A stretch of 64,000 nucleotides of DNA from assembly GCA_017886205.1 (NCBI GenBank), contig JAFNEO010000012.1:235207-299206 (forward strand). The letters are read 5' to 3'. Numbering within the stretch: the first letter of the stretch is position 1; each line of letters starts with the position of its first letter. Below the pieces are notes generated by a model, which was not told the DNA's origin, did not search any database, and worked only from the letters and a program-made list of their open reading frames with translations. This stretch comes from Candidatus Aminicenantes bacterium (lineage in GTDB: Bacteria; Acidobacteriota; Aminicenantia; Aminicenantales; UBA8522). Below, piece after piece: positions 19,472-59,969 of this stretch. A program made the position numbers and the translations under genes.

Positions 19472-21859
19472 ATGATAGGTCAGACTCTCGGACATTATCG
19501 CATCATCGAAAAAATCGGTGCCGGAGGGATGGGTGTTGTCTATCGGGCTAGAGATGAACGCCTGGAAAGAGATGTCGCCATCAAAGTGCTGCCCGCCGGG
19601 GCTCTCGCCGATGAAGAGATGAGAAAGCGCTTCCGCAGGGAAGCCATGGCTCTCTCCAAGCTCAACCATCCCAATATCGCCACTATTCATGATTTTAACA
19701 CCGAAGGAGAGGTGGACTTTCTGGCCATGGAATACATATCCGGTGTCACGCTGGGGGAGAAGGCACACTCAGGAGGATTGCCGGAGGCGGAAGTTGTCCA
19801 GGTGGGAAGGCAAGCCGCCGAAGCGCTGGAGGCCGCCCATGAGCAGGGAATGATCCACAGGGATCTTAAGCCCGGGAACATCATGATCACACCCAAGGGT
19901 CTGGTCAAACTGCTCGACTTCGGCCTGGCCAAGCTTTTCCGGCCCTCAGGAACTCTAGACAAGACTTTAACCCTCACCGGCGCCGGCACAGAAGCGTTGA
20001 CGGGCACCCTTCCCTACATGGCGCCCGAGCAGCTGGAAGGCCGCGAAGTTGACGAGCGAACCGACATCCACGCCCTGGGTGCCATTCTCTATAAGCTGGC
20101 TACAGGGAAAAGGCCGTTTCCTCAGGAGACCCCTTCTGAGATTATTCATGCCATCCTCCACAAACAGCCTGAATTGCCTCGGTCCCTGGGACCCCAGATC
20201 TCCGAGGGGCTGGAGCGGATTATCTTCAAGTGCCTGGAGAAGGAGCCGGCCGACCGTTATGCGTCGGCCAAAGAGGTGATCGGCGATTTAAACAAGCTTG
20301 AGACCGGTGATCTTTCGGCGCTTATTGCCGGAAGGCCCGGGCGCAGGGCCAAGCGAAGCTTGTGGCAAAGACCGCTGCCTGTGAGTCTTTTAGCCCTCGT
20401 CGGAGTAGCGGCTCTTTTGTTCGCTCTCAACATCGGTGGAATGAGAGACCTTTTGTCGGGCCGGGCCAAAACCCCCGGAGTGCAATCACTCGCCGTTCTG
20501 CCCCTGAAAAGCCTTTCCCAGGATCCTGAGCAAGACTATTTTGCCGAGGGAATAACGGATGCTCTCATCACTGAATTAGGACAGATCAGCACCCTGCAGG
20601 TGAAATCTCGCACTTCCGTCATGCAGTATAAAAAAACAGAAAAATCTCTGCCGCAGATCGCCAAAGAGCTGAATGCAGACATGGTGGTTGAAGGTTCTGT
20701 CTTGAGGGCGGGGAAAAAAGTGCGGATCACAGCCAAGCTCATTCATCCGGCCGACGAACGGCAGCTCTGGGTTAAGAGTTACGATCGCGACATCGGCGAT
20801 TTTCTGATTCTGCAAAGCGAGATTGCCCAGGATATCACAAGACAGATCGGCATCAGGCTCAGGGAGGAGGAGAGTTTCCGGTTGGCCAAGAGAAAGACTG
20901 TGAATCCCCAAGCCCTCGACGCCTATCTCAAGGGGGTTTATTCAGGCGATAATGGATATTTTAATCAAGCGATCAAGCTTGACCCGGATTTTGCTCTGGC
21001 TTATACCGAGATTGCAAAAAGTTATTTTTATAGTGGTCTATTGGGCGATGTTCCGCCTCGGGAGGCCTTTTTGGAAATGAAACAAGCAGCTCTAAAAGCG
21101 CTGGAGAAGGATAATACTCTCGGAGAGGCCCACGGCTATCTGGCTGTGGCCTGGCTCCATTATGATCTGGATTGGACTGAGGCTGAAAAAGAATTCAAAC
21201 GAGCCCTTGAGCTCAACCCCAGCCTCGCCATGATCCACCATCTCTATGCGCATCTCCTGATGGCCCTGGACAGAATGGAAGAGTCGATAGCCGAGGTCAA
21301 ACTCGCCTCGGGACTTGATCCCTTTGCCAATCCCAATCATTTATGCTCCGGCTGGCACTGCTTCAGCACGGCAGGTTATGATGAGGCGATTGGGCTTGCC
21401 CGCCAAGACATCCAGGCGAATCCTAAGGATGCGTGGGCCCATGTCACTTTGGGAATGGCCTATGAACAGAAATTCTTGATCAAAGAGGCCATTGTCGAGT
21501 TCCAAATCGCCCGCGATAATTGGAAGGATAACTTTCTTCCCCTGGCCGACCTTGGTCACGCCTACGGGATCGCCGGCCAAAAGAAGGAAGCGCAGGAGAT
21601 TTTGGAGAAACTCTTAGAGGAGAAATTCTTAGAGAAGTCCAAGCGCATTTACGTTTCAGCCTATGATATCGCCGCCGTCTATATTGGCCTTGGAGAAAAG
21701 AATCAGGCCTTTGAATGGCTTTCTAAAGCCTTAGAGGAGCGGTCAGGCTTTCTGGTTTACATCAAATGCGATCGGCGGTTTGACGGGCTGCGGTCCGACC
21801 CCCGCTATGAGGCTTTGCTCAAACGTATCGGCCTGCCACTCGGCGCGATAAAGAGCTGA
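19472..21859 (+). CDS. Hanks-type Ser/Thr protein kinase with TM segment and C-terminal TPR-repeat domain
   Basis: GAGGMGVVY, HRDLKPGNIM, DFGLAK, APEQ; TM 'LPVSLLALVGVAALLFAL'; TPR-like C-terminus. Confidence 0.85.
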   Translation: MIGQTLGHYRIIEKIGAGGMGVVYRARDERLERDVAIKVLPAGALADEEMRKRFRREAMALSKLNHPNIATIHDFNTEGEVDFLAMEYISGVTLGEKAHSGGLPEAEVVQVGRQAAEALEAAHEQGMIHRDLKPGNIMITPKGLVKLLDFGLAKLFRPSGTLDKTLTLTGAGTEALTGTLPYMAPEQLEGREVDERTDIHALGAILYKLATGKRPFPQETPSEIIHAILHKQPELPRSLGPQISEGLERIIFKCLEKEPADRYASAKEVIGDLNKLETGDLSALIAGRPGRRAKRSLWQRPLPVSLLALVGVAALLFALNIGGMRDLLSGRAKTPGVQSLAVLPLKSLSQDPEQDYFAEGITDALITELGQISTLQVKSRTSVMQYKKTEKSLPQIAKELNADMVVEGSVLRAGKKVRITAKLIHPADERQLWVKSYDRDIGDFLILQSEIAQDITRQIGIRLREEESFRLAKRKTVNPQALDAYLKGVYSGDNGYFNQAIKLDPDFALAYTEIAKSYFYSGLLGDVPPREAFLEMKQAALKALEKDNTLGEAHGYLAVAWLHYDLDWTEAEKEFKRALELNPSLAMIHHLYAHLLMALDRMEESIAEVKLASGLDPFANPNHLCSGWHCFSTAGYDEAIGLARQDIQANPKDAWAHVTLGMAYEQKFLIKEAIVEFQIARDNWKDNFLPLADLGHAYGIAGQKKEAQEILEKLLEEKFLEKSKRIYVSAYDIAAVYIGLGEKNQAFEWLSKALEERSGFLVYIKCDRRFDGLRSDPRYEALLKRIGLPLGAIKS

Positions 21860-28439: not shown

Positions 28440-28518
28440 CCTGGTTCTTACCGCTAACAATATTAAGAAAAACGGATTCTGTCAAACGCGGCGGCGCCAA
28501 AGCGCCAAAGGGGCCAAA

Positions 28519-28588
28519 GGGGTCAGGTCTCAACATTCAACAATTGTCAGCGTCGCTCCTGATTTGTTGATTGTTGAGACCTGACCCC
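28519..28588. repeat. REP family A doublet
   Basis: ggggtcaggtctcaacattcaacaa-N20-tttgttgattgttgagacctgacccc. Confidence 0.85.
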
Positions 28589-28653
28589 ATTCAGGGCCTT
28601 GACAAACGGTCTCCCCAAATGTATCTTCTTTGTAGATACATATAGGAGGAGAA

Positions 28654-28896
28654 TTGAGAGGTCGTGTACAGAAATGGGGCAACAGCCTGGCCCTCCGTAT
28701 CCCCAAATCATTCGCGTATGAGATGGGATTGGGACAGAATTCGTCTGTCCAGTTGATGCTCAAAGAAGGAGCGCTTGTCGTGACGCCAGAACACGGACCC
28801 CAATGGCGTCTGGAAGAGCTCCTAGAAAAAGTGACCGAAGATAACATCCATCACGAATGGGAGACCGGATCCGCCGAGGGCGATGAGATATGGTGA
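28654..28896 (+). CDS. mazE: MazE/AbrB-fold antitoxin
   Basis: 'VQKWGNSLALRIPKSFAYEMGL' SpoVT/AbrB swapped-hairpin signature; overlaps downstream toxin. Confidence 0.75.
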   Translation: MRGRVQKWGNSLALRIPKSFAYEMGLGQNSSVQLMLKEGALVVTPEHGPQWRLEELLEKVTEDNIHHEWETGSAEGDEIW

Positions 28897-29234
28897 GTCC
28901 AGGTCCATACATCCCCCGGCGCGGCGATGTCGTCCGGATCACCTTGAATCCTCAAGCTGGCCACGAGCAGGCGGGTCGAAGGCCAGCGGTCATTCTATCG
29001 CCTCACGCCTATAACGCCAAGGTCGGGCTGGCTCTCCTGTGTCCGATTACGAGCCAGGTCAAAGGTTATCCGTTTGAGGTCGCTATCCCCGCAGGATTGC
29101 CTGTTTCCGGCGTGATCTTATCCGACCATGTCAAGAGCATGGATTGGCGCGCCCGAAAAGCCGAATGGGTCTGTTCCTTACCACCACAGACAACAGCCGA
29201 GGTCCTGGCCAAGTCGCAGACATTGCTGACGTAG
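28890..29234 (+). CDS. mazF: MazF/PemK endoribonuclease toxin
   Basis: 'YIPRRGDVVRITLNPQAGHEQAGRRPAVILSP...LLCPITSQVKGYPFEV' PemK/MazF signature; 4-nt overlap with mazE. Confidence 0.8.
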   Translation: MVSPGPYIPRRGDVVRITLNPQAGHEQAGRRPAVILSPHAYNAKVGLALLCPITSQVKGYPFEVAIPAGLPVSGVILSDHVKSMDWRARKAEWVCSLPPQTTAEVLAKSQTLLT

Positions 29235-29456
29235 GCCCATGAATTGACCCATGGCTTTGCCCGAATAAATCCGAGTAAAAGTCACCGAGATCCTATCCGC
29301 TTACTGCGCCACGAGATGCCCGGCCAAGTTCAAGGATAAGGTTCGGTTGGGCTTTAGATTTCGCGGATCTGCTTGCCGAGGTCGAAGCCGACCCTACAGG
29401 GATATTCTGGGGATGAGGAGGAAGCGTTTATCATTGCTTGACTTATAAACAATTAG

Positions 29457-29594
29457 TTGTGAACAACTAGAAATTGTGAACATACCGATCCGTATGTCGA
29501 TCATTTACAAGCCGGTGTCCAGATCATTGAGGAAATTTCCTCTAACAACTCATTTAGGGCTTGACATTTGTTCATATATTTGCTATGTTCACAA
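29457..29594. promoter_or_regulatory. Promoter/operator region: TTGTGAACA x2 direct + 1 inverted (TGTTCACAA), TTGACA-N17-TATGTT promoter
   Basis: Sites at 29457-29465, 29474-29482, 29586-29594; -35 TTGACA 29559-29564. Confidence 0.4.
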
Positions 29595-30676
29595 TAGATG
29601 AAAAGAAAAATAAAGTGAACGCTATCCTAAACAAAACTAATAAAAACATCGAAGAAGAAATATTTCGGCTTGCCATTGAGGCGTTTCGGAAAAATGTCCC
29701 GACGCTAGCCAATATTGAAACGATTAACCTGGAACGCGTTTTCATAGAGGGGTTTCGGCCAGACCGCCAAATAAAAATGACAGTGCAGGGCAAGACTTTG
29801 GATTACTACGCCGAAATAAAAACAAATTTCAAAGAAGCAAATAAATTCCAATTGCTTATGTACAGAGATAAGCTCGACCACCCGCCCCTGGTCATCGCGA
29901 AGTATGTCAATGCCCAGATGGCAGATCAGCTAAAGCAGGACGGTCTGGAGTTCATCGACACTGCCGGCAATGCGTTCGTCAATAATCCTGCATTCTATAT
30001 TTTCGTGAAAGGGAATAGGCCTCCGGAGATACCAGGACAACCGCCACTTGAAAGAGCTTTCAAACCTGCCGGCCTGAGAATGGTTTTTGCCTTCTTATGC
30101 AATCCCGGTTTTGAGAATAGGACCTACCGGGAGATCGCCGCTGCCACAAAGGTCGCACTCGGGACCGTTAACTGGATCATGAAAGATCTGAAAAAACTGG
30201 GCTTTCTTCTGGACATGGGGAGGCGAGGCCAAAAGCTAATCCAAAAAGAGAATTTGCTACAACGATGGGTCATTGCATACCCGGAGCGGCTCAGGCCGAA
30301 GCAGATGCTCGGGCGCTACCGGGGTGATGCTGCCTGGTGGCAACAGAAGACCCTGGACCCGTTGAAAGCACAATGGGGTGGAGAGATTGCTGCCGCCAGA
30401 TTGACACAATATCTAAAACCGGAACTGATAACGATCTATACCGGGCCCCAAGAGATCAATCATCTGTTGTTCGAAAACCGACTCAAAAAAGACACGGCTG
30501 GAGATATCGAAATTCTGGCGAGATTCTGGAAGCCCGTTGAGATGTGGGAATACGGTGACCTAGTCCACCCAATCCTAGTTTATGCCGATCTCCTGGCAAC
30601 GGGAAACCAGAGAAATATAGAAACAGCGAAAATGATCTATGAGCAACATATTATTCGACTTATCAGGGAAGATTGA
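29585..30676 (+). CDS. AbiEi-like putative transcriptional regulator/antitoxin (wHTH-containing), start uncertain (29561/29585/29597)
   Basis: Internal HTH-like segment 'YREIAAATKVALGTVNWIMKDLKKLGFL'; immediately upstream of and overlapping AbiEii-like NTase gene. Confidence 0.4.
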   Translation: MFTIDEKKNKVNAILNKTNKNIEEEIFRLAIEAFRKNVPTLANIETINLERVFIEGFRPDRQIKMTVQGKTLDYYAEIKTNFKEANKFQLLMYRDKLDHPPLVIAKYVNAQMADQLKQDGLEFIDTAGNAFVNNPAFYIFVKGNRPPEIPGQPPLERAFKPAGLRMVFAFLCNPGFENRTYREIAAATKVALGTVNWIMKDLKKLGFLLDMGRRGQKLIQKENLLQRWVIAYPERLRPKQMLGRYRGDAAWWQQKTLDPLKAQWGGEIAAARLTQYLKPELITIYTGPQEINHLLFENRLKKDTAGDIEILARFWKPVEMWEYGDLVHPILVYADLLATGNQRNIETAKMIYEQHIIRLIRED

Positions 30677-31505
30677 TCAGCAGACAGTCGCCGCGCTATC
30701 TGTCGTGAAGAAAATCGCGGACTCCTTGAGTATTCCTTTTTTCGTCGTCGGCGCTTCGGCAAGAGACATCATTCTCAAGTACTGCTACGGAATAGAAACA
30801 CCGAGGATGACCAGAGATATCGACTTGGGAGTTGAGGTCGCAGATTGGGAGCAGTTCGACCAGCTTAGGGAATCATTGCTCTCGACGAGCAAATTCTCTT
30901 CGACGCAGGTACGGCACAGGCTCCGGTTCGATTCTGTCCTCATCGATATCGTTCCTTTCGGCGCAATCACCGACGAGAAAAGACGGATTAGCTGGCTACC
31001 TGAACACGAAATATTCATGAACATGGCTGGTTTAAAGGAGGCCTACGAATATTCGGTTGATGTGAAATTGAGTTCGGTCCCTGAGCTCGATATTAAACTG
31101 CCAACTCTACCAGGCCTAGCGCTCATGAAGTTGATTTCGTGGAAAGAGGGGTATCCGGAGCGCCAGAGAGACGCTGAGGATCTGCTGCTTATCATGGAGA
31201 AATATGAAGAAGCGGGCAACTTTGACAGACTCTACGAAAAAGAGCAGAGCCTGTTGGAGGAAGAGCATTTTGATGCAAGACATGCCAGTATCAGGCTGCT
31301 CGGCCGCGATATGGCTATAATGGCAGATCCTTATACATTGGACACGGTCAGGGCGATATTGAGTGAAGAAACAGGACAACGTTCTCAATATCGATTGATT
31401 ACAGATATGATCAGAGGCATGCTTGCTTCCGATCTCAAATTCGATGAGATTCTCTCTCAGCTAGAGAAGCTGGGACAAGGCCTTGTTGAGGCCTCAAAAA
31501 CATAA
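30639..31505 (+). CDS. AbiEii/AbiGii-family nucleotidyltransferase toxin (DUF1814-like)
   Basis: 'FFVVGASARDIILKY...RMTRDIDLGVEV' minimal NTase hG[GS]...D.D motif resembling GGTAL/RFSEDID of AbiEii; ~288 aa. Confidence 0.55.
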   Translation: MSNILFDLSGKIDQQTVAALSVVKKIADSLSIPFFVVGASARDIILKYCYGIETPRMTRDIDLGVEVADWEQFDQLRESLLSTSKFSSTQVRHRLRFDSVLIDIVPFGAITDEKRRISWLPEHEIFMNMAGLKEAYEYSVDVKLSSVPELDIKLPTLPGLALMKLISWKEGYPERQRDAEDLLLIMEKYEEAGNFDRLYEKEQSLLEEEHFDARHASIRLLGRDMAIMADPYTLDTVRAILSEETGQRSQYRLITDMIRGMLASDLKFDEILSQLEKLGQGLVEASKT

Positions 31506-31517
31506 CCGCTGTACTTC

Positions 31518-32757
31518 TTGTTAACCCCCTGTCCGCCCAGAAGCTTGTATCATATTAAAACAAGCATAACAGCTTGTGTTTCGACCGGAAAAAGAGACAC
31601 GGCAATTTTCACTAGACAGTTAAAAAAGCCTTGCCCGCCACTTCCTCTCCCTAGAAAACTCCCAGGAGCTCTATTACAACTGGGACCTTCGCCAGGTGCG
31701 GGATAGGTATAGGTCTGACTATACTTTCTTTGAGAGCCCGCTGCGAGACGCCAAATCTCGGGGGCGATTGCCCTGGATCTGTTTCGATGAGATCCACAAA
31801 ATGCCGAAATGGAAGAATATTCTCAAGGGTTACTACGACAAATACGAGAACGACTGCCGGTTCATCGTCACCGGCAGCGCCCGGTTAGACTGGTTCCGGC
31901 GGTCCGGAGATTCCCTGGCGGGGCGTTATTTCCTCTTTCGCTTGAATCCTTTAACACTCTCCGAAGTCGCAGGTCACCCGCATCGTGAGCCTGCCCGGGA
32001 TGAAACTGCTCTGGAATTCATTGAGCGAAAGCTGAGCCGGGGCCCCTCCAGGCAGGATCTGATTGATCACCTCCTGCACTACAGCGGGTTTCCCGAACCC
32101 TTCCTCAAGGCGGATGAGACATTCTACCGGCGATGGCAACGGGATATGGTGGATTACCTGACGAGGGAGGACGTTCGCGATCTGACGCGGATTATGGCCG
32201 TTGAGCATATTGCGACATTGATGCAGATCATGCCGGATCGTGTGGGCTCGCCTCTATCGTTGAATGCGCTGACAGAGGACATCGAGGCCAGTTATACTGC
32301 AGTTAAGAACGCTATCTCCGCCATGCAGCTCATCTGTGCCGTTTTTTTGATCTCCCCTTATCACCAGAGAATTGCCCGGGCGGTCAAAAAAGAAAAAAAG
32401 GCCTATTTTTATGATTGGGGCCGCGCCCTCGAGCCGGCGAAGAGATTCGAGAATTATGTCGCCGTCGAGCTCGCCACGATGATCGACCTCTGGCACGATA
32501 AGGGGATCGGCGATTTCGACCTGATGTACGTCCGAACGCGGGACGGCAAAGAAACTGATTTCCTGGTCATGCGGAATCGCCAGCCCTGGTGCCTCTTCGA
32601 GGCCAAACTTCAGGACGACGTTATCGCCCGGCACCATTTCGATCAGGCCAATGCCCTGGGGAACATCCCGTTTCTTCAGGTCACGGGTCAGGATAAGGTC
32701 TTCAAGAGACAGGATTCGCGCTTTTTCCGCATCTCCGCCAGCCGGTTCTTTGCGTGA
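31518..32757 (+). pseudogene. 5'-truncated/frameshifted AAA-ATPase of DUF4143 family
   Basis: ORF 31696-32757 begins at Walker B (WICFDEIHK) and has DUF4143-like 'TGSARLDWFRRSGDSLAGRYFLFRLNPLTLSEV' but lacks Walker A; short overlapping upstream frame (31518-31706) suggests frameshift. Confidence 0.5.
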
Positions 32758-32880
32758 TTTTTATCTCCTCTTCCTGACGCCCGCCTCCAAGGTCCGGGCA
32801 GCGATCGAGCAGTAGTTTCAGAAAAATGAGATTAAAGGATCTTACCTGCGTCTTATTAAATGCTTGGACAAATCCAACCC

Positions 32881-33087
32881 ATGAAAGTCAAAGGGGCCAT
32901 AAAAATGATTGAACAGGACGGCTGGTTCATGATAAGAAAAAGAGGAAGCCACCGGCAATATAAACATAACAATAAAAAAGGCGTGGTGACCATAACCGGC
33001 CATTTGAATGATGATCTCGCTAAAGGGACACTCGATAGCGTGTTTAAACAAGCGGGTTTAAAATATGGGAGGAAAGAAAGTGTATAG
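32881..33087 (+). CDS. hicA: HicA-family toxin (YcfA-like mRNA interferase)
   Basis: 'MIEQDGWFMIRKRGSHRQYKHNNKKGVVTITGH...GTLDSVFKQAGL' HicA signature. Confidence 0.75.
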   Translation: MKVKGAIKMIEQDGWFMIRKRGSHRQYKHNNKKGVVTITGHLNDDLAKGTLDSVFKQAGLKYGRKESV

Positions 33088-33295
33088 GTATCCGATTATC
33101 ATAGAAAGATCCAGGAATAACTATTCTGCCTACAGCCCGGATCTGCCCGGCTGTGTAGCCACGGGCGCAACCATCAAAGAGACTCTCTTGCGAATGAGGA
33201 GTGCGATCAGGTTGCACCTGGAAGGACTCAAGAAAGAAGGAACTGAAATCCTCCAGCCGTCGACGAAAGCTAGATACGTAGAAATCTCCATCTGA
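33080..33295 (+). CDS. hicB: HicB-family antitoxin
   Basis: 'YPIIIERSRNNYSAYSPDLPGCVATGATIKETL' UPF0150/HicB N-domain; GTG start with SD gggagg, overlaps hicA end. Confidence 0.7.
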   Translation: MYRYPIIIERSRNNYSAYSPDLPGCVATGATIKETLLRMRSAIRLHLEGLKKEGTEILQPSTKARYVEISI

Positions 33296-33366
33296 TTTTT
33301 CCGCCTCACCAACTCTAGAAATGGGGGAAAAATAGGACCGTCCCCATTTTGATTCCATCCGCAGGA

Positions 33367-33449
33367 GAAATTGGACCACCGCCCATCGCCCGGACGCTCG
33401 CGGCGGTATGCTGATGCTCCGGATTTGTTGATTGTTGAGACCTGACCCC
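33367..33449. repeat. Extended family A unit (second copy of ~80-nt element)
   Basis: GAAATTGGACCACCGCCCATCGCCCGGACGCTCGC...GCTGATGCTCCGGATTTGTTGATTGTTGAGACCTGACCCC. Confidence 0.7.
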
Positions 33450-33534
33450 GCGCACTGCTCCCCACGCCTTGAGAATTTTTGCCAATTAACTCCGTCTATA
33501 TAACCGGAGCCCGCAAAGCGCGGAAAAGCGCGAT

Positions 33535-33563
33535 TTGACAATTGGTACAATGAATAGTACAAT
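33535..33563 (+). promoter_or_regulatory. sigma70-like promoter TTGACA-N17-TACAAT for phd-relE pair (short leader)
   Basis: TTGACA 33535-33540, TACAAT 33558-33563, ATG at 33580. Confidence 0.4.
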
Positions 33564-33579
33564 TCAGCCGCAACACCAA

Positions 33580-33843
33580 ATGGACAAAGTCATCGGCATC
33601 GCCAAGCTCCGCAATTCGCTGGCCTCAATCATCAAGGATGTGACCAGGGGGTCTCATTACATCATCGTCCAGAGATCAAAGGCCAAAGCGGTTCTTCTCA
33701 GCCCAGAAGAGGTTGAGACACTTGAGGTCCTGGCTGACCGGAGGCTGCTGGAAGAGATCCTGGAAGCGAAGAAAGACATTCTTGAAGGCAGGTTCGCAAC
33801 CTACGAAGATTTTTTTGCCAAGAAACTACCTGAAAAACGCTGA
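33580..33843 (+). CDS. Phd/YefM-family antitoxin
   Basis: 'MDKVIGIAKLRNSLASIIKDVTRGSHYIIVQRSKAKAVLLSPEEVETLE' Phd/YefM signature. Confidence 0.75.
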   Translation: MDKVIGIAKLRNSLASIIKDVTRGSHYIIVQRSKAKAVLLSPEEVETLEVLADRRLLEEILEAKKDILEGRFATYEDFFAKKLPEKR

Positions 33844-33851
33844 ATTTCTGG

Positions 33852-34106
33852 ATGGCCCTTTTTCTAACCCGCACTTTCCAGAAGAACTTTCTTCGACTTC
33901 CCAAAAACAGCCAATCCAAGGTTGAGGCCGCTCTGAGAGAGATCCATTCAAACCCCCTTGCCGGGAAAAAGCTTCTCGGGGATCTCGAAGGCGAATTTTC
34001 GTTTCGAATCGGTGCCTACAGAATTATCTATTTCATCGATCAAGAGAAGAACATTTGGGTTGAAACCGTCCGGCACCGAAAGGAAGTCTATAAAAGGCTC
34101 AAGTAA
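33852..34106 (+). CDS. RelE/ParE-family toxin
   Basis: 'FSFRIGAYRIIYFIDQEKNIWVETVRHRKEVY' RelE/ParE C-terminal signature. Confidence 0.75.
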   Translation: MALFLTRTFQKNFLRLPKNSQSKVEAALREIHSNPLAGKKLLGDLEGEFSFRIGAYRIIYFIDQEKNIWVETVRHRKEVYKRLK

Positions 34107-34143
34107 TTCGGTGCCAGGCAGCTAATTACCGAAATTCTAATAG
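34105..34143. repeat. REP family B copy
   Basis: aattcggtgccaggcagctaattaccgaaattctaatagc, begins at relE stop codon. Confidence 0.8.
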
Positions 34144-34415
34144 CTTCCCTGACGGGTTTCCGCGGCTATCATGAAGACGATCTTTTTCTCTTCATCCACT
34201 TCATAGAAGAACCGCTGTGGGCCGATTCTGTATCGCCATGTCTCCGGCTTGTAGCCTCTCAACTTCCTGATGTTTTTCCCAAAATAGGGCTGGGCTTTCA
34301 ATTGCGGATAAACGTATTCATGAAGCTTTTTCGTCAACTTCTCCTGCCTCGGACCTAGATTCCTTTGGAGGTCTTCCTGAAACTGCTCAGTCTCGAATAT
34401 ACGATACTCACTCAA
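34137..34415 (-). CDS. RelE/ParE-family toxin
   Basis: 'KLRGYKPETWRYRIGPQRFFYEVDEEKKIVFMIAAETR' signature. Confidence 0.7.
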   Translation of the reverse strand: MSEYRIFETEQFQEDLQRNLGPRQEKLTKKLHEYVYPQLKAQPYFGKNIRKLRGYKPETWRYRIGPQRFFYEVDEEKKIVFMIAAETRQGSY

Positions 34416-34650
34416 CGAATCGACCTTTTATCCGTTTGGCTTGTTCACTGCCGGTCTTCAACCTCTCCAACAGATTCTTGTTGTTGAGGATCTCCTCCAT
34501 CTCAAATTCATCAGCGAACAACTCCTCTTCGATTTGTTTGAGTGCCAGTGTCTCGATGGCATTGGCCAGCGTTCGATTCTCGGCCTTGGCAAAGGCTTGA
34601 AAAAGACGGAAATCCTCGTCGCTCAGGCGCAGGGTGATCGTCTTGGGCAT
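34408..34650 (-). CDS. Ribbon-helix-helix (CopG-like) antitoxin
   Basis: MPKTITLRLSDEDFRLFQAFAKAENRTLANAIETLAL...; internal ATG of spurious 328-aa track ORF; overlaps relE start by 8 nt. Confidence 0.65.
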   Translation of the reverse strand: MPKTITLRLSDEDFRLFQAFAKAENRTLANAIETLALKQIEEELFADEFEMEEILNNKNLLERLKTGSEQAKRIKGRFVE

Positions 34651-34810
34651 GATGCAATATCCTTCCTTTTGATTCATTTTGATTCTATTTGCTTCATTTC
34701 GCTTTGTCAAGCTCATTCCGGTCCTTGTTCCAAAAGGAAGGTCCATATTGACCAACGAATTGGAAGCGGAGGATATCCCAACGTTTTTGAACGTTCTTGT
34801 CTCCCTAGGA

Positions 34811-34837
34811 TTTGTTGATTGTTGAGACCTGACCCCC
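34811..34837. repeat. REP family A half-site
   Basis: tttgttgattgttgagacctgaccccc. Confidence 0.85.
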
Positions 34838-34854
34838 TGTCCGTTAACCCCCAA

Positions 34855-34912
34855 TCCGCGGCGTAAACTTTTGTTGACATGACCCCAACATAATGTTATT
34901 TTGGTCCGGCGC
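34855..34912 (+). promoter_or_regulatory. Promoter module copy 1 (AACCCCCAATCCGCGGCGTAAACTTTTGTTGACA-N17-TATTTT, extended TG -10)
   Basis: Same ~45-nt module recurs at 51470-51530 and 56417-56472. Confidence 0.55.
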
Positions 34913-35007
34913 GGAAGCGAGGTGTTGCGATTTGTGCAAGCGCGCCGGCTGGGCGTTGACTTGCCGGCGGCGGCACACGATAATCGCCCCCGCAGAGCTT
35001 GGCAACT

Positions 35008-37200
35008 GTGATCGGGCAAAGCGTATCCCACTATCGCATCGTCGACCGTCTGGGCAGCGGCGGGATGGGTGTCGTCTACGCCGCCGAAGACACGCGCCTG
35101 GGCCGCCGCGTGGCACTGAAGTTCCTGCCGGAAGATGTGGCTCAGGAGAGCGAGGCGGTGGAGCGCTTCAAGCGCGAGGCTCGCGCTGCCTCCGCCCTGA
35201 ACCACCCCCACATTTGCACCATCTACGACATCGACGAATACGAAGGCCGCCCCTTCCTGGCCATGGAACTGCTGGAAGGCGAAACCTTGAAGGATCGTCT
35301 CACCGGTCGCCCGCTCAAGCTCGAGGAATTGCTGGGGTGGGGCATCGAAGTGGCTGATGCCCTCGATGCTGCCCACTCCCGGGGCATCATCCACCGCGAT
35401 ATCAAGCCGGCAAACATCTTCATCACCCAGGGGGGCCGGGCCAAGGTTCTGGACTTCGGCTTGGCCAAGCTTGCGCCCCAGCTCGGGCGGCCCGCAGGGA
35501 CCTCCGCTACGGTCACGATGGATACGAATCTGACCAGTCCCGGCTCTTCCGTGGGTACGGTGGCCTATATGTCGCCCGAGCAGGCACGGGGGGAGGGACT
35601 CGATGCCCGCAGCGACCTCTTCTCCGTCGGATCAGTGCTGTACGAAATGGCCACTGGACAGCGGCCCTTTTCCGGCTCCACCCCGGCGTTGGTCTTCGAC
35701 GCCATTCTGCATCAGTCCCCGCCTGCGGCCAACAGCCTGAACCCCGCCCTGCCGACGGCGCTGGACCGCATACTCGCCAAGGCGCTGGAGAAGGACCGCT
35801 ACGCCCGCTACCAGAGCGCCGCCGAACTGCGCGCCGACCTCCACCGCCTGAAGCAGGAGTTAGATTCTGGCCGCGTCCCGGCCCACGCTGCCGCCCGCCC
35901 GCCGGACGACAAGTCGGTGGCGGTGCTCTACTTCGAGAACCTCAGCGGCGCCAAAGAGGACGAGTACTTCCGCGATGGCATGACCGAGGACGTCATCACC
36001 GATCTCTCCAAGATCAAGGGGTTGCAGGTGTTCCCCCGCGCCGCCGTGTTGACCTTCCGTGACAAGCCGGTCACCGGCCCCCAGGTGGGGCAGCAGTTGG
36101 ATGCCGCCTACGTTCTGGCCGGCAGCCTGCGTCGGGCAGGGAGCCGGCTGCGGGTCAACGCTCATCTGGTCGAGTCCTCCACCGGCCACTCGGTCTGGGC
36201 CGAGCGCTACGACCGCGAGCTGCAGGATCTCTTCGAAGTGCAGGACGAGATTGCCCGCAGCATCACCCAGGCGCTGCGCATCACCCTCTCCCCGCCAGAG
36301 CGGAAAGCCATCGCGCAGAAACCTACGCGAGACCCGCGCGCTTACGACTACTATCTGCGGGGGCGCAGCTACGCCCGGCGGGTGACGCGCCCCGACTTGG
36401 AACTGGCGATTGAAATGTACGACCGCGCCGCGACCTTGGACCCCAACTTCGCCCTCGCTTATGCCGGCCTGGCCATCGTCTGCGGCGTGTACCACGAATG
36501 GCACGAGCAACATCCCCGCTGGGTGGAGAAGGGCCTGGCCGCCTGCGAGCGTGCCCTCGAACTCGACCCCGAGCTGCCCGAAGCGCTGGCCGCGCGCGCT
36601 CGCCTCTTCTACGCCCAGCACCAGAACGATAAGGCCATCGAGTACGCCCGCCGCGCTATCGAGCGCAAGCCCGACTGCGAGGGCGCCTACTGGACGCTGG
36701 GGCAGGCCTGCTTCGTTTCCGATCGCTGGCAGGAAGCGGCAGCGGTGGTGGAACAGGCGCTCCAAGCCAGCGGCGACGACTACAACACCTATATCCCCTT
36801 CTACAACATCCTGGTGCGGCTGGGACGAGACAAGGAAGCATCCGCGGTGCGCGAACGGCACTTGCGCGCATTGGAGTTGCATTTGGGACGCGTGCCCGAA
36901 GACGTGCGGGCGCGGATTCTGGTGGCGGCCCTCTATGCTGAACTGGGCCGAGAAAGTGATGCCATCCGCGAACTGCAGATGGCGCTCGTCCTCCGTCCCA
37001 ACGACGGCAATATCCTCTACAATGCCGCCTGCACCTACGGCCTCCTGCAGAAGAAGGCGGAAGCGCTGACACTGCTGCGCAAGGCCAAGGAATCCGGCTT
37101 CGCCACCATGGAATGGGCGGCGCGCGACCCCGACCTCGCCTGCCTGCATGACGACCCCGAATTTCAGCAACTGGTCGGGATGGAAGGCTCCAGCCGCTAG
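35008..37200 (+). CDS. Hanks-type Ser/Thr protein kinase with C-terminal TPR domain (compositionally GC-rich relative to flanks)
   Basis: [32 protein letters not shown]; TPR C-terminus; start set to GTG 35008 by analogy with MIGQ... starts of the other two kinases (track start 34999 is TTG). Confidence 0.8.
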
Positions 37201-46629: not shown

Positions 46630-46944
46630 TCAGTCCATATCCAGGGCGAAGCGGATGGCCTTATGGATCTCCTCCATTTTCCGCTCCGAAAGCCGGGCGA
46701 TTCTCGATTCCAGATAGGCCTTGGGAATCGTCAGCATCGAATCGCAATTCACGGCGCACGGCTTGGGGAGTCCGTCCTCCAACCCGAGAGAAACCTCGGC
46801 GGCGATTCCGCGGACGGTCGTCGTCACGGGCGCCACGGTGACTGCCGTCCTCACGGGATAGGCTTCGTCCCGGCTGAGGAGGACGACGGGCCTTCGCCCG
46901 GCCGGCGGTTTCAGCCGGGCCCACCAGACCTCGCCTTTTTTCAA
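46630..46944 (-). CDS. MazF/PemK-like toxin
   Basis: 'KKGEVWWARLKPPAGRRPVVLLSRDEAY' PemK-like N-terminus. Confidence 0.65.
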   Translation of the reverse strand: MKKGEVWWARLKPPAGRRPVVLLSRDEAYPVRTAVTVAPVTTTVRGIAAEVSLGLEDGLPKPCAVNCDSMLTIPKAYLESRIARLSERKMEEIHKAIRFALDMD

Positions 46945-47198
46945 GTCCAGTCCTCTTCTGACATGGACTCGGCCGACGTGCCGGCCATGGCCTCGGCGAT
47001 GGAGGCGTCCTCGGGCTTTTGACGATACCCGTTTTCGTACTCTCTCACCAATCGTTCCCTTTCGCGCGCTTCCTTCCAGGCGCGGAACGTTGCTAAAAGA
47101 AAGCCGCTGCGGCTCAATCCGGCTTTTCTGCGAATGGTCTCCAATTCCTTAAATTCCTCCCATGGGATACTGACGGCGAATTTGGCGGATTTTCTCAT
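46941..47198 (-). CDS. Ribbon-helix-helix antitoxin
   Basis: 'KFAVSIPWEEFKELETIRRKAGLSRSGFLLATFRAW' CopG-like; overlaps toxin start. Confidence 0.6.
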   Translation of the reverse strand: MRKSAKFAVSIPWEEFKELETIRRKAGLSRSGFLLATFRAWKEARERERLVREYENGYRQKPEDASIAEAMAGTSAESMSEEDWT

Positions 47199-47269
47199 GA
47201 CCAAGACCTGCTTCTTTCGGGTATTACCATGATAATACCGGAGTATTCCTATTGTCAAGTCGCAGATCG

Positions 47270-47390
47270 CGATTCAGTTCCGCCTTCGCCCGCGCGCTCG
47301 GCTTTTCCTCCGAATTCATCTCCCTCCTCGAGGCCGATAAAAGAGCGCCGTCCCTCGCCGCCCTGAACAAGATCGCCGCGTTGAAAAAGG
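47270..47390 (+). pseudogene. Remnant (~40 codons) of a third XRE-ImmA regulator gene copy
   Basis: Translates to FARALGFSSEFISLLEADKRAPSLAALNKIAAL, near-identical to residues ~20-55 of 51557 and 56507 products. Confidence 0.6.
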
Positions 47391-47549
47391 GTAATAAGAT
47401 CACACCGGCCTGAGAATTCATCTTCATATCCCGCGTCTTTTGAGTATGTTGATATTTGTTCCCGGCTCGAGCTTAGCAGGGCGCAAAATGTGTACGCAAG
47501 TGTTGACACATTTGGCTGTAATGATAAAATATCTCTTAAGGTGATCACC

Positions 47550-47816
47550 ATGAAGATGGCGGGCATTCGTGAAGTCCGGGCAAAATGCGCCGGCTATCTT
47601 GGCGGTTCCGAGCCTTTCCTGGTCACAAAACACGGGAAGGTCTCGGGTGTGTACATCCCGCTCGAATCTCCGGATCGGTTGCCCGACGATTGGCGCCGGG
47701 AAATCGGCAAGAGCCTGAGCCATTATCTCGCCAGGCTGCTGGAATTGAAGGGAATCACTGAGCGAGACGTTGGAGAGGATTTCCGTGCCTTTAGAGGCAG
47801 TCGTCGCCGACGCTAA
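47550..47816 (+). CDS. Phd/YefM-like (VapB-position) antitoxin
   Basis: 'MKMAGIREVRAKCAGYLGGSEPFLVTKHGKVSGVYIPLES'; SD aaggtga; overlaps PIN gene. Confidence 0.55.
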   Translation: MKMAGIREVRAKCAGYLGGSEPFLVTKHGKVSGVYIPLESPDRLPDDWRREIGKSLSHYLARLLELKGITERDVGEDFRAFRGSRRRR

Positions 47817-48207
47817 CGTTCTTCTTTCAGCGGTCATCGGAAAAGCCGCGCAAAAAATATTTTCAGAGCATAACCTTAAAGTCCATGCCTCAGAATTCAA
47901 TGCGAGCGAAGTCGGGGAATACCTGCCTGTCATGGCTAGAAAATATGCGCTGCCGGTGAATCTTGTCGTCTTGCGCTGGAGACTCCTCCCGCTGATCATC
48001 CATCCAGCTTCTGAATACGCCGGGCATTATAAAAAGGCATTAGCGGACCTAAAGGATCGAGATCCTGAGGATGCGCATGCGCTGGGGCTGGCCCGCGCGT
48101 TGAATTGTCCTCTGTGGTCGAATGATCGCCATCTGGCCAAATTCGAAGTCGCCTGTTACACGACGGCCCGGCTGCTCAAAATCCTGGAAATGCCGAAAGG
48201 ACGATAA
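47770..48207 (+). CDS. PIN-domain toxin (VapC-like)
   Basis: 'VVADANVLLSAV' N-terminal Asp block and 'WSNDRHL' C-terminal acidic block typical of PIN. Confidence 0.65.
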   Translation: MERISVPLEAVVADANVLLSAVIGKAAQKIFSEHNLKVHASEFNASEVGEYLPVMARKYALPVNLVVLRWRLLPLIIHPASEYAGHYKKALADLKDRDPEDAHALGLARALNCPLWSNDRHLAKFEVACYTTARLLKILEMPKGR

Positions 48208-48210
48208 GCC

Positions 48211-48248
48211 CGACGCCCCGAATTTGTTAAGTGTTAAGACCTGACCCC
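48211..48248. repeat. Degenerate REP family A half-site
   Basis: cgacgccccgaatttgttaagtgttaagacctgacccc. Confidence 0.7.
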
Positions 48249-48307
48249 GAAGGACCGAAGGAGGGCAATCCTTTAGCCTGGCGGTTATAATTGCCCTGGA
48301 AAAGGCG

Positions 48308-48937
48308 ATGACGCTGGTCAAGGAATATAAAGCCTACAGAAGAGCGTACAGGGAGATGAATCATAAAATTATGGAGAAGTATCTGAAGCATGATCAGCTT
48401 TTGAGATCAGCCAAGTTGCTCGGCGTTGTCCAGAGGGGCACTATGGTGTTCGAAAATGAGGAGGAAACAAACGTTTTGATGGATTTCGCCTTACATGAAT
48501 ATCGAGAGCACGACAAGAATGCAATCGCCCTCTACAGGGAGAAAATCGGCGGAGAGAGCGCCATGGAGAGGGCAATTTTGAACGCTCTGCTTTCCTCACA
48601 CACGTCATTGTTTAGAATTAGCGCTGTCTCGCCGTCAGAAAGTATCACGTCCTTAAGAGACCTCCTGAGTGAAGGGCAGCCGGTCAGACTCTTGGATATC
48701 GGCCTCAGCCAGTGCGCCACTCCAGGCTTCTTGATATTTGTCAGGCTCGTTCCATACAAGGACATGTTCATAACCTCCGGGATATCTTTCGTTTTTCCTC
48801 CCGGCCTGGAGAGATGTCTTCTTGGGAAGTATGAGGAGTTGTGCGGAAAAACCGAACCGGATGGGCTCTCGCTGGAGAGGTTTGTTTACTTTTTCAGGAG
48901 GAGCCGCGAAGATGGCCTGAGAGTCATTTATCAGTGA
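48308..48937 (+). CDS. Hypothetical protein (209 aa)
   Basis: Uninterrupted ORF in AT-richer accessory segment; no recognised motifs. Confidence 0.35.
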   Translation: MTLVKEYKAYRRAYREMNHKIMEKYLKHDQLLRSAKLLGVVQRGTMVFENEEETNVLMDFALHEYREHDKNAIALYREKIGGESAMERAILNALLSSHTSLFRISAVSPSESITSLRDLLSEGQPVRLLDIGLSQCATPGFLIFVRLVPYKDMFITSGISFVFPPGLERCLLGKYEELCGKTEPDGLSLERFVYFFRRSREDGLRVIYQ

Positions 48938-49028
48938 ACCTGAGCCATCAAGCGATCCTTATTACTTCATCTGTTTTGATCTTGCTTTATTCTAATAAAC
49001 GATTTTTAAATGAAAGAAAGAGTGCGCT

Positions 49029-49340
49029 ATGTGGTCGAAAAAGGAAAAGGACATTGCCCGGCGGGCTTTTGAGATGGCCCTGGAGAGAGAAGGCTTAGAG
49101 CTTTTAAGAAAGATCAAAGAGATGGCGCGTACGGCCGAGAATCGTAAAGATATCTGGCAGATCCACGATTTCCTCACGGAGAGAAGAACCGAAATCGATC
49201 AAAAGTATGATTATCGATATTCAGTGCTCATTCCTATTTTCGGCAGATTGGTCCGCGAAGAATGGATTAGACTCGATGAGCTTGAGGGTCTTGACGAAGA
49301 TAAAATCACGAAAATTAAAATAATGGCGAGTTTGGAGTAA
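49029..49340 (+). CDS. Hypothetical small protein (103 aa)
   Basis: ORF only. Confidence 0.3.
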   Translation: MWSKKEKDIARRAFEMALEREGLELLRKIKEMARTAENRKDIWQIHDFLTERRTEIDQKYDYRYSVLIPIFGRLVREEWIRLDELEGLDEDKITKIKIMASLE

Positions 49341-49453
49341 CCCATGGCTTTCATGGATCTGCTTGCCGAAGGCGAGGCCGGCAATAGAGCGCTGTCTTTC
49401 GCCACTCTCCATTTCCCTGTTATCGAATCGCCTTGGCCGCATCCGCTCGATGC

Positions 49454-49825
49454 TCACCTATATCGGCTGAGAATTCTCTCTCTATCCTCGTTCTCTTTGT
49501 CACCCTTGTAGTAAATTTCGATGAGCTCGACCCGATCCATTTCCTCGAAATAGGCATATACCACTCGAATTCCGGAATGGGCTCCTTTTCCTTTGAGCGC
49601 CCGGCAAGCGAATTTCCGGCCCTTGTAAACCTTTGGTCCTTGAATGCCAAGCTCCGCCATCTGCACAACCCCTTTGTTGTCAATCCTCAACTTATGGAAG
49701 AGTCCGAGCTCTGTGTTGATGAAATTGTCCAGGTCATCCTCTAGGGACCGGAACCTCTTGAGGAGCCTCTTCATGTCCCGCTCGAATTCCGGCAAGCGAA
49801 TAATTTCCTTAAACGGCGTCATCAT
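49454..49825 (-). CDS. RelE/ParE/HigB-like toxin (Gp49-like)
   Basis: C-terminal 'GIRVVYAYFEEMDRVELIEIYYKGDKE' toxin-fold signature; overlaps upstream antitoxin gene. Confidence 0.5.
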   Translation of the reverse strand: MMTPFKEIIRLPEFERDMKRLLKRFRSLEDDLDNFINTELGLFHKLRIDNKGVVQMAELGIQGPKVYKGRKFACRALKGKGAHSGIRVVYAYFEEMDRVELIEIYYKGDKENEDRERILSRYR

Positions 49826-50591
49826 ACTCCCGGACTGAATAAGCCGGTGCCCTGTAAAATACGGATTCGTACTCGATCGTTTTTCCCTCCTCAGTGGTCA
49901 GCCAGGGAACGTCGTTATGGGAATAATCAGTGATCTGACGGGCGTTCATGTCGGATAGCCTCCCCAGGACGTCGTTAATGATCTCTATCTCGCTGCCTTT
50001 CAACATGTTCAGGTCTGGCTTTCTCAGAGGCAGGTACTTTCTCTGAGGATATTCAAAATAATTCGCCTTAACTTCGACAATCACCCCATTAGCCATCATT
50101 TGATCCACGATTTTCCTGAATTCAAGGGGCGTCGGCCCATATTTGTTCTTCAGGTAAGTGGCGCCCATGAGCTGCTCCTCATACTTCTCGTAATAGTCAA
50201 AATCGATGAAATATAGGAGCTTATAAATGACCGTTTCGCCGATGGCGGGTTTTGCTCCCACCTTGTTGAGGATATAGATCAGTACTTCCTTGAATTTCCG
50301 GAGGTTCTTCTGGGGGATGTTAATTCTCATCCGGGGCATCGCTTCGGATCCATAGGCTTCCCGGCTTTCTCTGATCACGATTTGCGGCTCTTTATCTGGA
50401 TCGAGCAGGGTGTCCACAGACAGATTGAAGATTCCAGCTAATTTCCTAAGCTCCTCGGCGCACACCTTTCTCTCTCCGTTCTCAATCTGAGATATAGACG
50501 GGCGTGAAACACCGAGTTTCTCAGCCAAGGCCTGTTGGCTTAATCCAGTGGACTCGCGGATTTGCTTTATTCTTTGACCTAATGAATCCAT
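49809..50591 (-). CDS. HTH-XRE + Panacea (DUF4065/SocA-like) domain antitoxin
   Basis: N-terminal 'IKQIRESTGLSQQALAEKLGVSRPSISQIENGER' XRE HTH; C-terminal block 'VIYKLLYFIDFDYYEKYEEQLMGATYLKNKYGPTPLEF' resembling Panacea domain. Confidence 0.5.
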   Translation of the reverse strand: MDSLGQRIKQIRESTGLSQQALAEKLGVSRPSISQIENGERKVCAEELRKLAGIFNLSVDTLLDPDKEPQIVIRESREAYGSEAMPRMRINIPQKNLRKFKEVLIYILNKVGAKPAIGETVIYKLLYFIDFDYYEKYEEQLMGATYLKNKYGPTPLEFRKIVDQMMANGVIVEVKANYFEYPQRKYLPLRKPDLNMLKGSEIEIINDVLGRLSDMNARQITDYSHNDVPWLTTEEGKTIEYESVFYRAPAYSVREYDDAV

Positions 50592-50693
50592 ATTTCACTC
50601 CTAGGTTATAATTATAGATATGTTGGATAATATGTCAAGGCTATGTAAGAATATCGGACAAATCGAACCAGCAAGATATAGAGGGCAAAGACA

Positions 50694-50764
50694 GGGGATC
50701 AGGTCTGAATTCTTAACAAATTGAGGCGCCCCCTAGGATTTTTTGATTGTTGAGACCTGACCTC
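50694..50764. repeat. Degenerate REP family A doublet
   Basis: ggggatcaggtctgaattcttaacaa-N22-ttttgattgttgagacctgacc. Confidence 0.7.
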
Positions 50765-50922
50765 AAAAATCGATAATCCCCCCCGCGGCCGAGGCGGTAC
50801 GGTCGTCTTTATCCCACCTCTCCCCGAACTCAAGGAAACAAGCGAATACCTTATGAAATCCGGTTTCCGTCCGCTGTCTTGAAATAGCGGAACTCTTGTT
50901 TTATTAGGGCTTATCCGCTCAC

Positions 50923-51329: not shown

Positions 51330-51454
51330 CTTTGCACCTCTATTATGAATAGACGCTTTTCCTGCGGGTTTTCTCATTTTTTCCCTCGCCAGTTTAATAT
51401 ATCACAATTTCTCAAGGAATCATGGCCGAGCGCCTAAAGATCAGCAAAACGGAC

Positions 51455-51479
51455 TTATTGATTGTTGAAACCTAACCCC
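51455..51479. repeat. Degenerate REP family A half-site
   Basis: ttattgattgttgaaacctaacccc. Confidence 0.6.
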
Positions 51480-58906: not shown

Positions 58907-58914
58907 GAGTTAAT

Positions 58915-59940: not shown

Positions 59941-59969
59941 TAAATGAAAAGCATAATTAGGAGAAATAA

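Follow-up and report, generated by a model that had tools for sequence, protein, structure and literature searches.

A probable lineage-specific cluster of five toxin-antitoxin modules and a broken ATPase gene in an uncultured Aminicenantes bacterium

Gene content of the cluster

The DNA analysed here is a stretch of 64,000 nt, hereafter the window, from an uncultured member of the Aminicenantes (Acidobacteriota), and the element under study is a gene cluster at positions 28654-34650, lying in the gap between a DUF6599 gene on the left and a Ser/Thr kinase gene on the right. We read it, with a probability of about 0.85, as a lineage-specific cluster of five independent toxin-antitoxin (TA) modules and one dead ATPase gene, built piecemeal by horizontal transfer in a gap rich in repetitive extragenic palindromic (REP) sequences. 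Eleven open reading frames (ORFs) are found in the cluster, each scoring above the Pfam gathering threshold for its proposed family; this threshold was the basis of all family calls, with NCBIfam, PADLOC models, AlphaFold2 (AF2) and Foldseek as additional methods. The original prediction had described five two-gene modules plus a decayed ATPase gene, and the Pfam profiles support all eleven genes; the profile searches that it proposed as a check, which could have failed for AbiEii or HicA, backed every family assignment, those two included. All eleven ORFs lie at or near the positions given earlier, with two start codons corrected (phd and the AbiEi-type gene). The finding of five TA pairs and a broken ATPase gene, all of known kinds, is correct but ordinary.

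Compared with their profiles, all ten TA ORFs are uninterrupted and full-length. Most pairs overlap, as had been noted earlier: this holds for four of the five, with a longer overlap in abiE (38 nt) and hicAB (23 nt) than in mazEF (7 nt) and RHH/relE2 (8 nt), phd/relE1 being the sole non-overlapping pair, with a gap of 8 nt. Sigma-70-like sites matching 10-11 of the 12 consensus positions stand directly 5' of mazE, the AbiEi-type gene, phd and the ribbon-helix-helix (RHH) gene, and the region holds 15 promoter-like sites, vs 6.0 ± 2.8 in shuffled sequence. Judged by these consensus matches, four of the five modules have separate promoter-like sites.

The MazEF, HicAB, Phd-RelE and RHH-RelE modules

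The leftmost module, mazEF, is encoded on the forward strand behind a sigma-70-like site (TTGACA-17-TATCTT, 28599-28627) that is a candidate promoter by consensus match only. The mazE antitoxin gene (28654-28896) specifies 80 aa from a TTG start after AGGAGG and matches PF04014 MazE_antitoxin with 35.3 bits (cut-off 24.7, E 1.1e-8), while the 114-aa mazF/PemK endoribonuclease toxin gene (28890-29234) matches PF02452 PemK_toxin with 86.4 bits (cut-off 23.1, E 1.9e-24) over profile positions 1-104 of 109. Against the NCBIfam equivalog NF007386, MazF scores 118.7 bits with a cut-off of 120, and it is therefore taken as a family member and not as a certified equivalog. The pair resembles Escherichia coli MazEF (ChpA) in its antitoxin-toxin order, the length of its overlap, its AbrB-type MazE and its PemK-fold MazF; it differs in that MazE scores 40 vs a cut-off of 113 for the NCBIfam MazE, besides the narrow shortfall of MazF.

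The hicA toxin gene (32860-33087, forward strand, 75 aa; PF07927 HicA_toxin, 68.9 bits, E 4e-19) is followed by a 76-aa hicB antitoxin gene (33065-33295, forward strand; PF15919 HicB_lk_antitox, 42.7 bits, E 7.7e-11). The toxin gene coming first and being overlapped by the antitoxin gene is the usual order of HicAB systems, but HicB is here a short form without the C-terminal DNA-binding domain, matching only positions 1-61 of the 123 in the profile, which is the toxin-binding half. Short HicB forms exist.

The phd-relE1 module also lies on the forward strand, with a sigma-70-like site (TTGACA-17-TACAAT, 33535-33563) matching 11 of 12 consensus positions. The phd/yefM antitoxin gene, whose longest ORF runs from 33535, most likely starts at ATG 33580 (33580-33843, 87 aa; PF02604 PhdYeFM_antitox, 36 bits; NCBIfam TIGR01552, 27.2 bits); the alternative start TTG 33535 was rejected since it coincides with the -35 hexamer of the promoter-like site. 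Its partner, RelE/ParE-superfamily toxin 1 (33852-34106, 84 aa), matches PF05016 ParE_toxin with 43.9 bits (E 3.7e-11), and a ParE-like profile likewise matches it. The RHH-relE2 operon is read from the reverse strand, with a sigma-70-like site at 34682-34710 (TTGACA-17-TAGAAT, 11 of 12), an 80-aa DUF6290 RHH antitoxin (34408-34650, starting at ATG 34650 after GGAAGGA; PF19807, 34 bits, cut-off 27, E 3.4e-8) and the 92-aa RelE/ParE-superfamily toxin 2 (34137-34415), whose match to PF05016 is marginal (24.6 bits, cut-off 23). Both modules share with known Phd/YefM-RelE and RHH-RelE/ParE type II systems the order antitoxin then toxin and the small size of their proteins (80-92 aa), and differ from them in that the toxins are placed no finer than the RelE/ParE superfamily. 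Residues of the R..Y type near the C-termini of the toxins, as read from the sequence, may hint at RelE-like mRNA cleavage.

The abiE pair and its promoter

The regulator of the abiE pair, a putative antitoxin of the AbiEi type, is encoded at 29585-30676 on the forward strand, with 363 aa if read from ATG 29585 or 353 aa from GTG 29615. A still earlier start, TTG 29561 (371 aa), was rejected, as it is the conserved -35 hexamer in an alignment of 70 related promoters. The protein matches PF09952 AbiEi_2 with 145 bits and has an internal HTH_24 match; Pfam and AF2 together delimit an N-terminal PD-(D/E)xK-like domain (~29642-29989), a winged helix-turn-helix (wHTH; ~30047-30274) and the AbiEi_2 domain (30233-30652). 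PF09952 presumably corresponds to COG4861. The full regulator has 4160 database relatives, the best 120 of which are nearly all 343-387 aa long, several being named 'AbiEi family antitoxin' by NCBI, mostly in Nitrospirota and Thermodesulfovibrionia; its N-terminal 182 residues find 1205 clusters at 50% identity, nearly always as the N-terminus of proteins of 335-360 aa.

The regulator had been called unusually long, with an atypical internal helix-turn-helix (HTH) that might mark a distinct subfamily. This does not hold: the layout is the one standard for the COG4861-type family. PF09952 is present at about the same length in all 84 diverse full-length relatives that share the N-terminal domain, NCBI already names relatives, and the COG4861-COG4849 pair has been recognised since 2014, so that a partner of 353-363 aa is not atypical. 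A COG4861 regulator followed by a COG4849 nucleotidyltransferase is a pair distinct from the COG5340-COG2253 AbiE (Dy et al. 2014, PMC3985639), and the COG4861 and COG5340 regulators share no sequence identity (PMC3985639). Indeed, the regulator matches no Pfam family of the COG5340-type AbiEi, and its wHTH is internal (residues 180-207 of 363), whereas characterised COG5340 AbiEi proteins have an N-terminal wHTH and a C-terminal antitoxin domain. From these and from the Rv2827c family it differs in belonging to PF09952 and in carrying an extra nuclease-like N-terminal domain of ~135 aa before the wHTH. Sequence searches for relatives of solved structure found none for the full regulator or for its N-terminal domain, the latter searched with a diverse 84-sequence profile, and a literature search on PF09952, DUF2186 and AF2093 gave nothing useful. 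In the AF2 model, built with a 49-sequence alignment, the two upstream domains are confident and the well conserved C-terminal AbiEi_2 domain has a predicted local distance difference test (pLDDT) score of ~30, and the model is therefore silent on how AbiEi_2 might bind the toxin.

The toxin gene (30639-31505, forward strand) encodes a 288-aa DUF1814 AbiEii/MenT1-like nucleotidyltransferase, matching PF08843 with 33.8 bits (cut-off 22.5) over profile positions 22-236 of 238. Its AF2 model is confident (pLDDT 89.9, predicted template modelling score 0.89), and the first-ranked PDB entry in Foldseek is Mycobacterium tuberculosis MenT1 (8an5_B, E 4.6e-6, TM-score 0.60 on the target), followed by ANT(2'') and CCA-adding enzymes; at the sequence level, no PDB match to the toxin was found. 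The profile match, the modelled fold and a DUF1814 toxin as the best solved structure together uphold the AbiEii-like nucleotidyltransferase of the original prediction. Among 50 relatives the motifs of the pol-beta type are kept (G38-A-S40, D60-I-D62, D103, K164..W168, R177-D178-A-E-D181): G38, D60xD62, D103, K164, W168, R175 and D181 are invariant and D178 is retained in 48. The spacing from G to DxD is ~21 residues, vs 15 quoted for AbiEii (PMC3985639). A Ser or Thr occupies position 40 in 47 of the 50, as would suit the phospho-acceptor known from MenT1, MenT3 and AbiEii. MenT1 (Rv0078A, PDB 8an4/8an5) is itself a COG4849-type toxin, but its chains have 184-195 aa and are 16-18% identical to the 288-aa protein, and its antitoxin MenA1 has no wHTH, unlike the regulator of the window. 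With the COG4861-COG4849 pair the module shares a wHTH regulator gene that precedes an overlapping DUF1814 nucleotidyltransferase gene, and the toxin of the window keeps the G..DxD, the third Asp, the K..W and the RDxxD.

The pair was compared over 56 non-redundant related loci with enough downstream sequence. A full toxin gene is present in 45 of them, with an identical 38-nt overlap in 44; in the remaining 11 (L037, L038, L053, L064, L072, L079, L084, L087, L089, L106 and L119) the toxin gene is truncated, internally deleted or frameshifted beside a full-length PF09952 gene. None of the other genes of the cluster co-occurs with the abiE pair in related loci, and on this comparison the pair is an autonomous module.

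The candidate promoter/operator of the pair spans 29561-29626 on the forward strand (-35 TTGACA at 29561-66, -10 TATGTT at 29584-89) and was delimited by the consensus of 70 distinct related loci, TTGAC-tTTTGTTCAtttTttTg.TATGTTCATAaTaAaTGAACAtaaaaAtaaAgTGAACaa..ctATG. Two TGTTCA and two TGAACA half-sites surround the -35 and -10 hexamers in this consensus, and the alignment places their counterparts in the window at 29569-74 (TGTTCA), 29586-91 (TGTTCA), 29599-604 (TGAAAA) and 29616-21 (TGAACG). Inverted half-sites are likewise a feature of the AbiEi-regulated promoter of Streptococcus agalactiae (PMC3985639). By analogy with the autoregulation of AbiEi and Rv2827c, the half-sites are likely the operator bound by the wHTH domain of the regulator. 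Further upstream, two direct TTGTGAACA repeats 17 nt apart (29457-29482, forward strand, with copies at 29457 and 29474) form a candidate distal operator; this 9-mer is confined to the abiE promoter, with three copies in the window against 0.14 expected by chance. Also between mazF and abiEi, the 41 nt at 29359-29399 are 78% identical to 49349-49389, in a second apparent TA cluster of the window, and may be the relic of a gene end.

The N-terminal domain of the regulator

AF2 models residues 20-135 of the regulator with pLDDT 70-85 as a helix, three strands, a helix, a strand, a helix and a strand, in which D60 precedes the second strand and E77-x-K79 lies in the third, as in the PD-(D/E)xK arrangement. 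These residues are near-invariant in close relatives, and D60, E77 and K79 are kept in 64, 72 and 74 of 84 diverse relatives, respectively. Foldseek returns AF2093 as the top match (E 6e-3) and the Bax1 endonuclease (E 9e-3), and Pfam finds sporadic weak matches among the relatives, concentrated on NucS_C, Mrr_cat, SfsA, PDDEXK_9 and PDDEXK_13. The NucS_C matches occur in four of 84 full-length relatives and are not among the families listed for the first 150 residues, where other nuclease families are; as they were not reproduced there, the nuclease assignment is treated as unproven. We conclude from this weak but convergent evidence that the domain probably has a PD-(D/E)xK nuclease-like fold, an active nuclease being unproven. 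The most conserved feature in the N-terminal half of the PF09952 family is a different one, the motif F-I-D-T-A-G-N-A-Y (residues 123-131 of the 363-aa protein, 29951-29977), whose D125, G128 and N129 are present in 84 of 84 diverse relatives.

It could be supposed that the PF09952 protein is more than an antitoxin and repressor, with an N-terminal domain that acts as a nuclease or senses DNA and so turns the abiE pair into a two-enzyme defence module. We regard this as somewhat unlikely: the similarity scores are all weak, the tools do not report which query residues are aligned to the nucleases, 12-24% of relatives lack the motif, regulators often carry nuclease-fold domains that are inactive, and orphan antitoxins are common in ordinary TA systems. 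The same idea extended to the whole COG4861/PF09952 family (at least 1200 clusters at 50% identity), namely that an active or DNA-sensing N-terminal domain makes COG4861-COG4849 a two-enzyme defence module, seems to us unlikely. If it were true, the pair would consist of a nuclease or sensor-regulator and a tRNA nucleotidyltransferase instead of a plain TA system, and the copy in the window would be one ordinary member.

The broken ATPase gene and the state of the modules

Between the abiE pair and hicAB lies a 5'-truncated remnant of a DUF4143/AAA_14 ATPase gene (31627-32757, forward strand) of the PADLOC candidate type PDC-S01, with an ORF at 31696-32757 whose first possible start is GTG 31696. 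It has a Pfam match to DUF4143 and a partial one to AAA_14, restricted to profile positions 62-128 of 129, and matches the PADLOC PDC-S01 model (PDLC04790) with E 3.9e-37 from position 82 of 422. Its intact relatives have 407 aa and are up to 90% identical, and the alignment to the best of them (P0391) begins at residue 32, directly past the Walker A motif GPRQSGKT, which corresponds to position 31627; 5' of this point all three frames contain stop codons. By this comparison, which bears out the truncation claimed earlier, the gene is a pseudogene that lacks its start codon, Walker A and the rest of the first 31 codons. Its likeness to PDC-S01 (AAA_14 plus DUF4143 ATPase), seen in the model match and in the identity to intact relatives, is thus qualified by the missing segment, and PDC-S01 is itself a candidate system only. 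A three-gene system of abiE and the ATPase was considered and rejected, as just one of 86 related loci has any DUF4143 match (24% identity, opposite strand) and the ATPase of the window is without Walker A. A short relic (~45 nt, 32770-32817, forward strand) follows between the ATPase remnant and hicA; repeat comparison identifies it as an internal piece of an HTH_3/Peptidase_M78 (ImmA/IrrE-like) gene, related to 6366-6408 of the abiE contig L037 and to 52313-52359 and 57236-57282 of the window. In L037 and L043, the contigs with the most closely related abiE pairs, a full HTH_3/Peptidase_M78-type gene follows abiE.

Six metagenome contigs of the same population bear the cluster with essentially identical sequence. 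Two of them (L002 and L004) have independent in-frame deletions in the ATPase remnant, at 31854-31913 (60 nt) and 31866-31889 (24 nt), and two single-base differences in L002 are the only others over ~5 kb; the deletions fit relaxed constraint on the remnant. One may ask whether the modules are likewise mostly inactive relics heading for deletion, a reading with which the truncated and further eroding DUF4143 gene, the M78 relic, the toxin decay in 11 of 56 related abiE loci, and an abiEi gene with weakened half-sites and no usual start codon would all agree. We consider it quite unlikely, because the ten TA frames are intact and full-length, the catalytic residues of the AbiEii-like toxin are unchanged, four modules retain promoter-like sites near consensus along with credible ribosome-binding sites, and an in-frame GTG start is left for abiEi.

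Base composition, repeats and origin

The GC content of 29235-34650 is 48.9%, vs 57.2% in the remainder of the window. A GC content this low occurs in no more than 0.7% of stretches of 5.4 kb, and the 5.4-kb stretch of minimum GC (48.5%) begins at 29401. The segment 29.3-34.1 kb is thus AT-richer than its background, as had been predicted, and composition is not uniform; the left boundary at 29.3 kb fits mazEF (GC 53-59%) being near the host value. Third-codon-position GC is 0.45-0.68 in the cluster genes and rises to 0.76-0.85 in the DUF362, DUF6599 and kinase genes that flank them, and the modules themselves range in GC from 0.41 to 0.59. The lowest GC of the window (0.41) is found elsewhere, at 58001-60000, and lies below that of the TA cluster.

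The window contains 15 copies of REP family A (GGGGTCAGGTCTCAACAATCAACAA) and five of family B, each with a chance expectation of 0. Of these, an inverted pair of family A with 28-nt arms and a 20-nt loop (28516-28591) separates mazE from the DUF6599 gene and bounds the cluster on the left, a single family A copy stands between hicB and phd (33416-33449, reverse strand), a family B copy sits where the two RelE/ParE genes converge (34104-34136), and another family A copy (34808-34848, reverse strand) bounds the cluster on the right, separating the RHH operon from the kinase gene. The first three had been reported, at 28519, 33425 and 34105, and are found again here; the fourth had been overlooked. 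Four module junctions therefore have a REP copy. The repeats resemble REP and bacterial interspersed mosaic element (BIME) sequences in being short imperfect palindromes with GC-rich ends and many intergenic copies, single or as inverted pairs, although their sequences are specific to this lineage. Across the window, the copies of both families are all apparently intergenic.

The relatives of the DUF6599 neighbour are found in metagenome-assembled genomes of Candidatus Aminicenantes and other Acidobacteriota, while the named close relatives of the abiE pair belong to Nitrospirota and Thermodesulfovibrionia. The nearest sister species (DUF6599 87% and DUF362 91% aa identity) has at its DUF6599 gene a PhoX gene, a phd-relE pair (81-87% aa, 83% nt) and a REP copy, and none of mazEF, abiE, the ATPase, hicAB and RHH-relE2, so that phd-relE1, with its toxin 87% identical, is the sole shared module. 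About 28 further Aminicenantes-type loci have no cluster gene beside DUF6599-DUF362. Neither a tRNA gene nor any Rfam family above its gathering threshold is present in the window, no integrase, transposase or relaxase is found among the ORFs examined in 28.5-34.9 kb, and searches of plasmid and phage collections returned only a 160-nt match to mazF at 70%. The contents of the sister-species and related loci, the lack of tRNA, integrase and mobile-element matches, and the GC differences among modules favour piecemeal accretion over a single insertion. That the whole 6 kb arrived at once as a mobile element or its remnant (an integrative island, a plasmid or a prophage fragment) is very improbable on these grounds, even if the AT-rich block is continuous from ~29.2 to 34.9 kb between bounding REP copies and the truncated ATPase and M78 fragment suggest a formerly larger block, as the flanking repeats belong to a genome-wide REP family and are not island-specific direct repeats, phd-relE1 is present in the sister species where the other modules are absent, and related abiE loci lack the other modules.

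Several points weigh against our reading of a cluster of five independent TA modules assembled piecemeal, or narrow what can be claimed for its parts. The six population contigs are identical over the modules and hence uninformative on selection there. The scan of the region for sigma-70 consensus sites found none 5' of hicA, and the Pfam scan detected no RHH or HTH DNA-binding domain in the 76-aa HicB, which makes autoregulation by HicB doubtful. The PADLOC AbiE models do not match the abiE pair at E ≤ 0.001; the toxin matches only the candidate PDC-M21B (E 3.9e-7) and the regulator no model. Two of the four proximal half-sites of the abiE promoter carry one mismatch each, the other two being perfect, and the usual ATG of abiEi in this family reads ATC in the window (29624-26), so that translation has to begin at one of two other codons, the in-frame GTG 29615 or ATG 29585 within the -10 hexamer; expression or regulation of abiEi may hence be poor. 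The COG4861-type antitoxins, still cited as uncharacterised, have no experimentally studied member, and repression and neutralisation are therefore argued by analogy with a family without shared sequence identity (PMC3985639). As to the RelE assignments, PF05016 spans both RelE (mRNA cleavage) and ParE (gyrase poisoning), which Pfam cannot tell apart, and NCBIfam matches neither toxin, so that both toxins are assigned to the superfamily and to neither of its branches.

Proposed mechanism and significance

The mechanisms of DUF1814 toxins and the autoregulation of AbiEi have been described elsewhere (PMC3985639; PMC11375011; bioRxiv 10.64898/2026.01.19.700257). By analogy with these and other TA systems, each antitoxin would bind its cognate toxin and repress its own promoter, the short HicB perhaps excepted, and a fall in antitoxin supply through stress, phage attack or loss of the DNA would free the toxin and bring translation to a halt. 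Direct cleavage of mRNA would be expected of MazF and HicA, and cleavage of mRNA on the ribosome would be the most likely action of the two RelE/ParE toxins. The AbiEii/MenT1-like enzyme would extend tRNAs at their 3' ends with nucleotides and so block charging. The PF09952 regulator would repress the abiE operon through its wHTH at the TGTTCA/TGAACA half-sites and neutralise the toxin by binding, possibly by inducing the toxin to phosphorylate itself, as described for MenA1-MenT1 and AbiEi-AbiEii. Cells would as a result stop growing, which would abort phage infection or stabilise the region, if not both; the ATPase remnant, being without Walker A, would contribute nothing.

Taken alone, the locus matters little, as a small horizontally assembled TA cluster of a common bacterial kind in a poorly studied phylum. 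It presents TA modules as accumulating singly at a REP-rich intergenic site: an older module is also found in the sister species, and a gene in the course of decay lies among the modules. What is new is modest: the probably nuclease-like N-terminal domain, so far unannotated, MenT1 as the best structural match of the toxin, and the four-half-site promoter at 70 loci. These offer handles at the level of the family on the COG4861-type partner, through the four-half-site promoter, the probable nuclease-fold domain and the MenT1-like toxin with its conserved Ser/Thr where a phospho-acceptor would be expected.

Other observations in the window

A second apparent TA cluster, read from ORF translations, lies at 46630-51377, with MazF-like and RHH, VapBC-like, Gp49/HigB-like and XRE, and HicA/HicB genes, and is likewise GC-poor (0.47-0.52). 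An XRE-HTH/Peptidase_M78 gene is duplicated at 51557-52651 and ~56507-57600, ~4.9 kb apart and with 94-96% nt identity, and a third, partial copy (100 nt) is found at 47280-47379. A 59-nt repeat containing TTGACA precedes the kinase gene and each of the two full M78 genes (34844-34902, 51472-51530 and 56414-56472), and a sequence resembling its start (TTAACCCCC.GTCCGC) occurs at 31521, right after abiEii. The kinase gene with tetratricopeptide repeats (TPR) at the right flank of the cluster (34999-37200) is one of three paralogous Ser/Thr kinase genes in the window, which have a catalytic-loop stretch in common at 6605-6691, 19849-19935 and 35385-35471.

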